Source of the DNA: Promethearchaeota archaeon
GTDB taxonomy: Archaea > Asgardarchaeota > Lokiarchaeia > Sigyniarchaeales > SOKP01
Length of the DNA: 32,000 nucleotides
Direction: 5' to 3'
NCBI GenBank assembly: GCA_030606485.1
Contig: JAUWGH010000002.1
Span: 330,001-362,000 of the forward strand
The notes under the pieces: model-generated
The model's input: the letters and a program-made list of their open reading frames with translations, nothing else
The model's database searches: none
Told to the model about the DNA's origin: nothing
Made by a program: the position numbers and the translations under genes
In this document: positions 24,871-27,137 of the stretch, piece by piece
Numbering within the stretch: position 1 is the stretch's first letter
Layout: each line of letters opens with the position of its first letter

Positions 24871-24894
24871 AAACAATTTTTAAATATTTACTCC

Positions 24895-24909
24895 TTTTTT
24901 TCGTTTTTT
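24895..24909 (+). terminator. Probable archaeal oligo-T terminator of pgk
   Basis: T7-CG-T6 tract 25 nt after the pgk stop. Confidence 0.45.
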
Positions 24910-24916
24910 AATTTAA

Positions 24917-24994
24917 TCCCCAGAAATTAAAGAGGTACGCTCCCATCCGAATACTTCTATAATTTTTAAGTATTCATCATATGTGTCCTGGGAA
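24917..24994 (-). promoter_or_regulatory. Eukaryote-type SECIS-like element in the 3' UTR of the TGA-containing small ORF
   Basis: Minus strand: UUCCCAGGACACAU-AUGA-UGAAUACUU-AAAAAUUAUAG-AAGUAUUCG-GAU-GGGAG...UUCUGGGGA. It has tandem G.A/A.G core pairs (AUGAU/GGAU), a fully paired 9-bp helix II, unpaired adenines at the 5' side of the apical loop and a GC-rich lower helix. Confidence 0.8.
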
Positions 24995-25015: not shown

Positions 25016-25165
25016 TTAGCATCATCCTCCACCATTAGGAGGAGGTTGGAATAAAACCGGAGCGAATATTACTAATATAATTACAATTATTATTATTGCC
25101 GCTATAATTGTACCTAAGATAATAAAATTTTTTTGTTTCCGTTTATCTGCAATATTTTGATCCAT
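25016..25165 (-). CDS. Candidate small single-pass membrane selenoprotein (49 aa, C-terminal GGG-U-C); not in the ORF track
   Basis: Manual translation: MDQNIADKRKQKNFIILGTIIAAIIIIVIILVIFAPVLFQPPPNGGG(TGA 25024-25022)C(TAA 25018-25016). There is an alternative in-frame ATG at 25171. A SECIS-like hairpin lies directly downstream. Confidence 0.75.
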
Positions 25166-25204
25166 AACCATACACTTTATTTTTTAGACTTAATTAATCT
25201 AATT

Positions 25205-25298: not shown

Positions 25299-27137
25299 AT
25301 GATTAGTAAACTTGAATATATAAATGATTTTTCAATAAAGATTGAAGATATAAGTAAAATCTGCTATGATAAATCTACTAAAATATTTTCTGCCGACCTT
25401 TTTGATTTTAAATTTATAGGTCTTTATAGAAAATCGACAAAAATTAGAAAAATCTTGGATGAGCTCTATACTTTATTGATAGACTTACCAGTAAAACGCA
25501 ATGATCTTTTTCTTTTAAATTTAAAAAACTGGAAACCAATCTCTGAAAAAAGTAAAATAAAGAAACTGAATTTGACAAAAAATGATGAGTTTGTATTTGG
25601 AATAAGGTTTAATATTAATATAATCGATGAAAATACTGACCAGCATAAATTATTTAGAGATATTTTCCCTCACAAGATACCTTTTAATATGATTCTACAG
25701 AAATTCACAACAGATGTAGGCATAGATAATAGATCTTTTGAACTTTATGTAAAAGAGAAATCTATGTCTCAGTGGATTTTATTCGAGGATAATGGTGAGA
25801 AACTATTTGAAGATATAATAAGTGAATACGGAAATGTTTTTGAATTACGAATTAAGAAATTCGAATATAAAGAAGAAAAATATCTTGTAATATATTTTGA
25901 AAATAAGTTATCGCCAGAGCCCGAGCTTGTGCCGTTCCCAGTTTTACCTACTTCAACTATAACTGATCTTTTACCCGAATTATCAGAAAAATTTAATATT
26001 CAGCCACAAGATGTATCTATAACAGAAAAATATGGAACTATACTTTCACCAGAAGATTACATGCTGCCAATTAAAGAGTTGAAGGAAAAATATGGAGATA
26101 CGTTTGATATAGTTGAAATCCATTTTGCAGGTGGCGGTCCTCCTCCTCCAAAAGAAAAAGATATGTTTATCGAAGAAATTCATGAGGAAGAGAAGAAAAA
26201 ACTAAGGAAAAAAGCAATGCCTTCAATATTATCACGCCCAGCAGGCCCACCTAAAACTAAAGAAGTTAGTAAACAAGAAGTTCCTAAATTGGCTTCAGTG
26301 AAAGCACCTCCTCTTCCAGAAAGAGCATTATTTAAACGAGATGAAATTCAAATGGAAACTGAAGCTGAGGAAATTGAAGATGTGTTAGCGTATGCACCTT
26401 TAGAAGATCAAGGTATAGAAACTCCCCAATTAATCAGATATGATATCAATATGGGACTCCAATACTACTCAGTGATGATGGAACAGTGTAGTTATTTATT
26501 TTATATATATTTTTCTCATGAAGAATTAATAATAGAAGATGAGGATGGTAAAACAATAGTTAAAACGAAATTTACAATAGAAACAACTAAAAAAGAGCCC
26601 CCAGTATTAGACGTTAGAGTAGAAGGAGAAGGTTTCGAAGTTCATCCTCTTATTGCTAAACTACTTGTTAAAAAAGAAGCCGTGAACCCACCTCTTATGA
26701 TTTTTTCAGTTCTCCCTATAAAAGCAGACAAAAAAGAAAACAAGAAAAAAGATAAAGAACATACTGATACTCGATTTTTGCATGTGCTCATTGATTTTGA
26801 GGATAAAATTATAAACCACACAGTTTTAGCGATAATTGTCCAACCCAAACATTTTCACTTAGATCTTGGACCCATACATATCGATATTGGTAAAACAACT
26901 GCCACTTTTATTTCCTTAATTTCATTAGCCTGGGCAGTGATCTCAGTAATATATTCCCTCATATCTATTGATTTATCATCCACTCTATTTAATGTAGTAG
27001 GGGGATTCACTCCCAGCCTAATATCCATTCTATTTGTCGTCATTTTCTTTTACACATTAATTAAAGGAGTTTATCCACTCAAAAGAATGTGGAGTAATAC
27101 TCTTAATTTCGATAAGACTTCACCAATTTCAAAATAA
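25299..27137 (+). CDS. Membrane-anchored protein with 2-3 tandem ubiquitin-like (beta-grasp) domains, internal Gly-Gly, Pro/charge-rich linker, beta-rich domain and 2 C-terminal TM helices
   Basis: Residues ~195-280 fit a Ubl pattern (V.P.STITDLL..L...F.I.P.D..I....G.IL...D....I.EL...YGDTF.IV...AGGG). Residues ~103-187 repeat it (YGNVFEL). Residues ~30-102 may be a third copy. GGG is at 26130-26138 and is followed by PPPP. Confidence 0.65.
   Translation: MISKLEYINDFSIKIEDISKICYDKSTKIFSADLFDFKFIGLYRKSTKIRKILDELYTLLIDLPVKRNDLFLLNLKNWKPISEKSKIKKLNLTKNDEFVFGIRFNINIIDENTDQHKLFRDIFPHKIPFNMILQKFTTDVGIDNRSFELYVKEKSMSQWILFEDNGEKLFEDIISEYGNVFELRIKKFEYKEEKYLVIYFENKLSPEPELVPFPVLPTSTITDLLPELSEKFNIQPQDVSITEKYGTILSPEDYMLPIKELKEKYGDTFDIVEIHFAGGGPPPPKEKDMFIEEIHEEEKKKLRKKAMPSILSRPAGPPKTKEVSKQEVPKLASVKAPPLPERALFKRDEIQMETEAEEIEDVLAYAPLEDQGIETPQLIRYDINMGLQYYSVMMEQCSYLFYIYFSHEELIIEDEDGKTIVKTKFTIETTKKEPPVLDVRVEGEGFEVHPLIAKLLVKKEAVNPPLMIFSVLPIKADKKENKKKDKEHTDTRFLHVLIDFEDKIINHTVLAIIVQPKHFHLDLGPIHIDIGKTTATFISLISLAWAVISVIYSLISIDLSSTLFNVVGGFTPSLISILFVVIFFYTLIKGVYPLKRMWSNTLNFDKTSPISK

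Follow-up and report, generated by a model that had tools for sequence, protein, structure and literature searches.

A candidate family of membrane micro-selenoproteins in Lokiarchaeia with selenocysteine at or near the C-terminus

A short membrane-protein gene with an in-frame UGA

We analyzed a 32,000-nucleotide (nt) stretch of DNA from a Promethearchaeota archaeon of the class Lokiarchaeia (the window; assembly GCA_030606485.1, contig JAUWGH010000002.1) and identified on its minus strand (25016–25171) a small gene that very probably encodes a selenoprotein. The gene appears to be monocistronic, and its predicted product is a single-pass membrane micro-protein of 49–51 residues whose penultimate codon, UGA, would be decoded as selenocysteine (Sec; U in one-letter code) via a selenocysteine insertion sequence (SECIS) in the 3′ untranslated region (UTR). 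Conservation of the coding gene and of its UGA, a bona fide SECIS of the type described in Lokiarchaeota (lokiSECIS) and the use of Sec by the organism are all shown or strongly supported by the comparisons below. Judging from about a hundred related genes, the protein belongs to a real and apparently undescribed family of archaeal membrane micro-selenoproteins.

The open reading frame (ORF; window 25171–25022) extends from an ATG at 25171 to a TGA at 25024–25022 and encodes 49 amino acids plus the TGA. One TGC codon (25021–25019) and a TAA (25018–25016) follow. Reading the TGA as a residue gives a product of 51 residues (51 codons plus TAA) that ends in GGG-U-C, with Sec at position 50 and Cys at position 51. 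A first-pass annotation of this DNA had described a basic N-terminal segment, a single transmembrane helix and a tail of Pro and Gly followed by TGA, one Cys codon and the true stop, and all of these features are present in the sequence. The N-terminus carries the basic motif DKRKQK, a single hydrophobic and uncharged stretch of 22–26 residues spans F16–F41 (codons 25049–25126), and the linker to the Sec codon reads QPPPNGGG. When the locus was compared across the genus, one congener was found to have TTG in place of the first ATG. The second ATG (25165) is therefore probably the conserved start and would give 49 residues. A word-indexed protein search with the 49-residue ORF gave zero candidates, and the ORF itself is absent from the 90%-clustered protein collection.

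The 3′ region carries a lokiSECIS element

The hairpin that the first-pass annotation had described as SECIS-like is real and has every published feature of a lokiSECIS. Its core (24980–24946, minus strand; 35 nt) starts with AUGA (24980–24977), continues as a 9-base-pair (bp) stem (helix II; 5′ arm 24976–24968, 3′ arm 24956–24948) closed by an 11-nt loop (AAAAAUUAUAG, 24967–24957), and ends with GA (24947–24946). Eight Watson-Crick pairs and one U-G pair make up the stem, with zero mismatches. The AUGA begins 44 nt past the first base of the UGA, leaving a gap of 35 nt between UAA and AUGA. In the extended element (24917–24994), a lower helix (approximately 24994–24986 paired with 24925–24917) encloses the core and begins 30 nt past the UGA; a small hairpin (approximately 24944–24931) lies 3′ of the core. 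The passages that define the lokiSECIS (Mariotti et al., 2016; PMC4989117) describe an AUGA 5′ of a 9-bp stem; an 11-nt apical loop with mostly A in its first five positions and an ultraconserved G in the last, usually preceded by A; a GA after the stem (AA in VhuU); and a location just 3′ of the selenoprotein coding sequence. The AUGA, stem, loop, A-run, terminal AG, GA and position of the element reported here all agree with this description.

Matches to the fixed 9-bp/11-nt geometry are rare in the genome (3.75 Mb, 29% GC). A scan of both strands (7.5 Mb) found four perfect-stem matches: the element at this locus, the element of vhuU (contig 5) and those of two hdrA-vhuD pairs (contigs 8 and 12). 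A further vhuD gene of the genome has the same element with one mismatch. We used the published geometry in place of an earlier, looser pattern, which matched 84 sites in the genome and was unspecific. Dinucleotide-matched simulated genomes contained one or two perfect sites anywhere, with a slightly looser pattern, or approximately 3e-5 per 100-nt stretch. Thus, a SECIS within 100 nt of a given TGA is expected by chance at a frequency of about 3e-5.

Two generic approaches returned null results. The fold energy of the 3′ region was indistinguishable from that of shuffled sequences (z −0.79), so thermodynamics alone is uninformative on this region. A scan of the window against Rfam, with expectation values (E) up to 10, gave no match to a SECIS family. 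The latter result is unsurprising because standard SECIS models miss the Loki elements: according to the relevant passages of Mariotti et al. (2016; PMC4989117), the standard tools gave no significant match when tried on Loki selenoprotein genes.

Conservation of the locus within the genus

The locus is present in three other genomes of the genus at 92–96% identity. All four genomes keep the TGA and the TAA, and the two indels that separate their ORFs are both multiples of three. Variation is unevenly distributed along the locus. Variable columns amount to 10% in the ORF, 27% in the spacer after the stop, 3.8% in the extended SECIS, 2.9% in the SECIS core (1/35 columns) and 38% in the sequence beyond the SECIS. 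The contrast between 3.8% in the SECIS and 27–38% in its flanks identifies the RNA element as the most constrained part of the locus. Between TGA and TAA, two of the four genomes have TGC and two have GGC, and the products would therefore end in U-C or U-G. Of the two codons whose conservation the first-pass annotation had proposed to check in orthologues, the TGA is kept in 4/4 genomes but the following codon is not (Cys in two, Gly in two).

A family of related genes in Lokiarchaeia

More distant relatives of the protein were recovered from other Asgard genomes. A six-frame peptide search of 101 genomes from the GTDB family of this genome (f1) gave weak matches, several of which had a TGA preceded by a run of Gly codons and followed by a SECIS of the Loki type. 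We then built a profile, first from eight such sequences and later from 55, and used it to query 154 genomes at the level of the order and 400 across the phylum. In the 400-genome search, the best 74 profile matches (E up to 9e-8) all had an in-frame TGA within a short frame, after a Gly run. Matches with E up to 0.001 occurred in 98 of 134 f1 genomes (10 of 13 genera) and in all three genomes of f5, a family of the same class that belongs to a different order. The combination of TGA and SECIS confirmed members in eight f1 genera (g1, g2, g3, g6, g7, g8, g9 and g11) and in f5. The other Asgard families, among the 33 sampled, gave weak matches only, and those inspected were without the TGA-plus-SECIS signature. 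Family f2 (14 genomes, three of them assembled as a single contig) likewise yielded only such weak matches, and the micro-selenoprotein family was not found in the Heimdall/Hodarchaeal lineages sampled in the 400-genome search.

The SECIS is conserved together with the TGA. We extracted 67 loci by the protein profile alone and then inspected them for the RNA element, which was present 40–118 nt after the TGA in 67/67 loci as an AUGA, a 9-bp stem, a 10–12 nt A-rich loop ending in G, and GA or AA. The background frequency of this pattern in the genome is 7e-4 per 100 nt. A gap-free MAFFT alignment of the 59 distinct elements, in which the AUGA is invariant, revealed changes on both sides of all nine stem pairs. 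Double changes numbered 107 cells against 32 ± 6 in shuffled alignments (0/500 shuffles reached 107), and the signal collapsed in register-shifted controls. The percentage of paired stem positions is biased by the way the loci were selected; the covariation is not. Furthermore, RNAalifold, run without a preset pattern, recovered the stem and a conserved small hairpin 3′ of the GA. A covariance model trained on the family elements minus those of this genus matched exactly three SECIS elements of the genome, those of hdrA-vhuD (E 8e-12 to 2e-7), which indicates that the family and accepted selenoprotein genes use one and the same RNA element. Hence, both the TGA and the downstream SECIS whose joint conservation in Asgard relatives the first-pass annotation had proposed to check were found.

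We also observed that the G+C-rich mini-hairpin 3′ of the SECIS GA (24931–24944, minus strand), which is conserved in the SECIS elements of the family, has similar counterparts after the vhuU SECIS (contig 5, ~254815–254840) and the vhuD SECIS (contig 8, ~218260–218285) of the same genome. Its strands are swapped in this genus and in g9, with the purine-rich arm first. We found no name for this hairpin in the portions of the SECIS literature consulted.

Architecture of the family proteins

The 67 members share a common layout. An N-terminal segment of approximately 14 residues (mean 4.25 Lys/Arg and 1.7 Asp/Glu) precedes an uncharged helix of 19–30 residues (mean 24) and a linker of approximately 10 residues (mean 0.07 Lys/Arg and 1.3 Asp/Glu). 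Gly occupies positions −3, −2 and −1 relative to Sec in 54, 54 and 58 of the 67 proteins, respectively. Position +1 is mainly Gly or Pro, whereas Cys is found at +2 in 42/67 and at +4 in 10/67, mainly in a U-P-S-T-C group. The consensus is therefore GGG-U-x-C, followed in most members by a hydrophobic tail of 12–35 residues; one member has a second Sec (U-P-C-U). AlphaFold2 modeled a 65-residue member from 32 aligned relatives (mean predicted local distance difference test score, pLDDT, 74) with a single long helix at residues 9–38 (pLDDT ~90), a coil at 39–49 that holds the GGG-U-x segment, and a second helix at 50–64 (pLDDT ~65).

Short forms that stop 1–3 residues past the Sec occur in this genus (U-C and U-G) and in g7, g9 and g11 (U-GC, U-GY, U-PG, U-G and U-GG). 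Their presence in several genera suggests that the short form is a recurrent, maintained variant in which the Cys is dispensable. This distribution does not bear out the vicinal Sec-Cys pair that the first-pass annotation regarded as the defining motif: two of the four genus genomes encode U-G-stop, other short forms end in U-G, U-PG or U-GG, and the family consensus is U-x-C.

Past the UGA, the frames of the longer members stay open for 12–35 codons. An in-frame excess of synonymous changes was detected in these tails in three of six subgroups (for example, 42/85 in frame versus 10/115 and 1/119 out of frame), and the signal was weak in the other three. The charge bias of the family (4.25 versus 0.07 Lys/Arg on the two sides of the helix) predicts a topology with the N-terminus inside and the C-terminus outside, which would place the Sec outside the cell, in agreement with the caution about topology in the first-pass annotation.

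Many long-tailed members (L070–L077, L086, L089, L090 and other g2 loci) have a frame that ends at a second UGA, 6 nt before the AUGA of the SECIS (for example, ...KLW-UGA). Within one such mRNA, a first UGA would thus be read as Sec and another, 15–19 codons on and beside the SECIS, would act as the stop, a natural setting in which to ask how recoding depends on position.

Selenocysteine machinery of the organism

The genome encodes the components expected of a Sec-using archaeon, as the first-pass annotation had proposed to confirm. A tRNA-Sec scored above the Rfam threshold and adjoins a SepSecS gene (above cut-off), and SelB, above its NCBIfam cut-off, is encoded approximately 3.5 kb from this pair. 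SelD was also above cut-off and has one in-frame TGA. The remaining component, PSTK, is represented by an ORF with a full-length match under the strict cut-off. Other selenoprotein genes include four VhuD genes, each with two TGAs, and a VhuU peptide with Sec in its nickel-binding motif. SepSecS was detected in 130 of 135 f1 genomes, a near-universal presence that prevents a phyletic profile against Sec use from discriminating. Metagenomes from cold seeps and marine sediment contain this DNA.

Among the four vhuD genes with Sec codons, frhD1 (contig 1, ~58616–59100) has a stop that is not followed by a clean 9-bp/11-nt lokiSECIS; instead, a GGGAC...GGGGGC clamp and a GUCCCU-GCA-AGGGAU hairpin lie in the 3′ region.

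Relation to described selenoproteins

Gene callers appear to have obscured the family in public databases. A search of 1.84 billion protein representatives with the family profile returned 45 matches with E up to 0.001, most of them proteins of 47 residues that stop at the Gly run; these are family members cut at the UGA. A few longer matches have Trp at the Sec position, and in the one that we checked the contig encodes the protein only when TGA is read as Trp. Five public entries with Trp at the Sec site are P0005, P0007, P0015, P0023 and P0028. Such entries could mislead alignments and code-prediction tools toward a reassigned TGA in these Asgard metagenome-assembled genomes. There was no clear bacterial relative among the inspected matches of this search, in a collection that carries no organism names.

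No described family accounts for these proteins. When 55 members were compared with Pfam and NCBIfam by hmmscan (E up to 10), no family reached its cut-off, and the matches listed reflect noise from the transmembrane helix. Neither SelK_SelG nor Selenoprotein_S appeared among those listed, which comprised all 12 matches of the protein of this locus and, across the members, the 25 families with the most matches. The FeoB-associated Cys-rich membrane protein (PF12669) resembles the family in layout only, having one N-terminal transmembrane helix and a Gly/Cys-rich tail. We rejected membership in PF12669, as 3/55 members matched it with a best E of 0.14, far under cut-off, and there is no feoB neighbor.

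The closest known systems are the lokiarchaeal selenoprotein genes themselves. VhuU, HdrA-VhuD and PrxL (PMC4989117) use the same recoding signal just after the coding sequence, which has been classed as type I eSECIS-like (PMC11227280). The shared form comprises an AUGA, a 9-bp stem, an 11-nt loop that starts with AAAAA and ends with AG, and a GA, and in the genome studied here it serves vhuU and hdrA-vhuD. Like the product of this locus, VhuU is a peptide with one Sec and a length of approximately 50 residues. However, the protein described here is unrelated to the seven listed Asgard families (named below) and differs from them in being a membrane-anchored micro-protein rather than a soluble enzyme or subunit, in having its Sec at or near the C-terminus, and in having no Cys form that we could find.

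Published inventories are consistent with the novelty of the family. The consulted portions of Mariotti et al. (2016; PMC4989117) report five Loki selenoprotein families and a SECIS-based search of the original Loki assembly that gave no further candidates. In those of Huang et al. (2024; PMC11227280), seven Asgard families identified via homology are listed (SelD, FrhA/VhuU, HdrA, FrhD/VhuD, Prx-like, AhpF-N-like and DsbA-like), with no eukaryote-specific family detected. The same seven-family list is repeated in the available sections of a 2026 review. The family described here is absent from all three lists as presented there, and full-text literature searches found no report of an Asgard transmembrane selenoprotein. 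Thus, the suggestion of the first-pass annotation that the gene represents a new Asgard selenoprotein family is upheld by the conserved TGA in relatives, the co-conserved SECIS, the presence of the Sec machinery and the absence of the family from published lists.

Evidence for UGA recoding and alternative explanations

Several observations weigh against decoding of the UGA as Sec, or against parts of the model built on it. The gene was without coverage in three metatranscriptome runs and one doubtful RNA run. Because only one codon lies past the UGA in this genus, read-through is invisible in the gene's own coding signal, and recoding is argued from the conserved SECIS and from the long-tailed relatives. 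Among the latter, the codon-position signal of the tails is weak in the other three of the six subgroups. The covariance model built without this genus scored the window SECIS at 17 bits (E 0.06, filters off), though as the top match in the window, and a whole-genome search with the same model did not return this locus. The model is dominated by the sequence of closely related stems. The gene neighbors are not conserved across genera (an FGGY kinase and a TrmB-like regulator in g2, an MFS transporter in g11, and PGK and an unknown 612-residue protein in this genome) and so provide no functional clue. We found no Cys homologue in the 400 genomes or among the 1.84 billion protein representatives, contrary to the Cys forms that the first-pass annotation had predicted in Sec-lacking relatives; the usual Sec/Cys pairing test therefore cannot be applied. 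Lastly, the topology is a prediction from the positive-inside rule.

The strongest alternative is that the membrane peptide is real but its UGA serves as a plain stop in this genus, the protein being a truncated remnant and the SECIS either a relic or an element with a role in RNA stability or termination. The single codon between UGA and UAA, which varies between Cys and Gly among four close genomes, and the loss of the tail that most relatives carry are in keeping with this scenario. A relic, however, would not be expected to be the least variable segment of the locus (3.8% versus 27–38% in the flanks). Independent short forms with an intact SECIS are also found in g7, g9 and g11, and there is no other minus-strand gene upstream that the SECIS could serve. 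On balance, we consider a plain stop unlikely.

Kinship with the eukaryotic membrane selenoproteins, as an Asgard precursor of the proteins of the endoplasmic reticulum, was one of the readings offered in the first-pass annotation. SELENOK and SELENOS (PF10961 and PF06936) do resemble the short forms in their single transmembrane helix, Gly/Pro-rich segment and Sec 1–2 residues from the C-terminus, and their 3′ UTR holds a kink-turn SECIS comparable to the eukaryote-like element of this family. In SELENOK and SELENOS the linker is approximately 50 residues long and the Sec is cytosolic. The family linker, in contrast, measures approximately 10 residues, most members have a U-x-C motif and 12–35 hydrophobic residues past the Sec, and the charge bias predicts the opposite topology. 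The profile comparisons described above, in which no Pfam family reached cut-off for the 55 members and neither SelK_SelG nor Selenoprotein_S was among the matches listed, likewise fail to link the two groups. Furthermore, the family is confined to two lokiarchaeial families of the 33 Asgard families sampled, and proteins this short and compositionally simple could easily converge. With sequence, linker length, tail, topology and distribution all different, homology is unsupported and very unlikely. We give an equally slim chance to the notion that GGG-U tethered one-helix proteins are archaeal forerunners of the SELENOK/SELENOS type or, more broadly, part of an ancient class of membrane-anchored micro-selenoproteins shared across domains.

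Another possibility is that the hydrophobic segment acts as a signal sequence that is cleaved off, leaving a tiny secreted or surface selenopeptide. The basic N-region, hydrophobic core and stretch of small residues (Gly) would suit a signal sequence, but the core (19–30 residues, mean 24) has the length of a membrane span rather than that of a signal-peptide core. Cleavage would leave a mature product of at most ~10 residues in this genus, and no conserved cleavage motif was found, making secretion highly improbable. Finally, a chance ORF beside a chance hairpin in AT-rich DNA, which the fold energy (z −0.79), the lack of an Rfam match and the absence of the ORF from the 90%-clustered protein collection might suggest, can be dismissed in view of the conservation in the genus, the TGA of the family, the SECIS in 67/67 loci and its covariation, the more so as standard SECIS tools miss known Loki elements too (in the passages cited above from PMC4989117).

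Proposed mechanism and function

Decoding of the UGA as Sec, the explanation that we favor, would follow the route of other SECIS-dependent genes. The intact element in the 3′ UTR would recruit archaeal SelB/EFSec with Sec-tRNASec while the UGA occupies the A site of the ribosome. The lower SECIS helix, which starts 30 nt past the UGA, would stay clear of the mRNA held by the ribosome. After insertion of Sec, one more residue would be added (Cys here, Gly in close relatives) before UAA terminates translation. The Lys/Arg-rich N-terminus is predicted to remain in the cytoplasm while the helix spans the membrane and a Pro/Gly tether of approximately 12 residues presents the selenol on the outer face. 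Membrane insertion is probably post-translational, in a tail-anchored manner, because the helix lies near the C-terminus with approximately 12 residues beyond it.

We tentatively propose that the protein functions as a membrane-tethered, exofacial redox center, although soft-metal binding is the main alternative. In most members, which have the GGG-U-x-C motif, Sec and the +2 Cys could form a selenenylsulfide within the same molecule during redox cycling. Short forms without the Cys could act through Se-Se or Se-S bonds between molecules, either with another copy of the protein or with a partner.

Genomic neighborhood and other small proteins

The divergent neighbor of the gene (25299–27137, plus strand) encodes the 612-residue protein, which is without a Pfam match and has a Pro/Lys/Glu-rich middle and hydrophobic C-terminal helices. 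On the other side, the three congeners (L016–L018) carry approximately 0.55–1.3 kb of extra sequence between the SECIS and the end of pgk that is absent in this genome (window 24880–24915).

The searches also brought up small proteins outside the family. Three loci (L027 and L047 in g2 and L041 in g11) encode one-helix peptides with a poly-Gly segment ending in GGGGGGGTIFG-stop and with no Sec, Cys or SECIS; these could be either unrelated or a sister group that has no Sec. Small one-helix ORFs with an in-frame TGA and a Loki-type SECIS nearby were noted at L129 (G051; C-D-L-P-I-U), L121 (G136; C-K-R-U) and L148 (G106; C-P-P-U), and may represent further families of membrane-anchored C-x-x-U selenoproteins. 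By contrast, the Cys-rich one-helix proteins of family f18 (G240 and G242) are not members, having a different Cys-rich tail, no TGA and no SECIS.

Implications for Asgard selenoproteomes

The published Asgard selenoproteomes were built by homology and comprise seven families, all soluble redox enzymes or subunits, with no eukaryote-type selenoprotein. With the family described here, the set gains a micro-protein that is anchored in the membrane and carries Sec at the C-terminus or close to it. Most genomes of one large lokiarchaeial family encode it, and within the reach of our searches its use of Sec appears obligate. The family suggests that SECIS-guided searches can still uncover whole Asgard families whose genes are cut at the UGA, or read through it as Trp, by gene callers. 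The locus also provides a compact natural test case, of approximately 250 nt for ORF plus SECIS, for a eukaryote-like SECIS acting only 40–45 nt from the UGA. If the selenol does sit on the outer face of the membrane, this would point to selenium chemistry on the cell surface in the archaea most closely related to eukaryotes.

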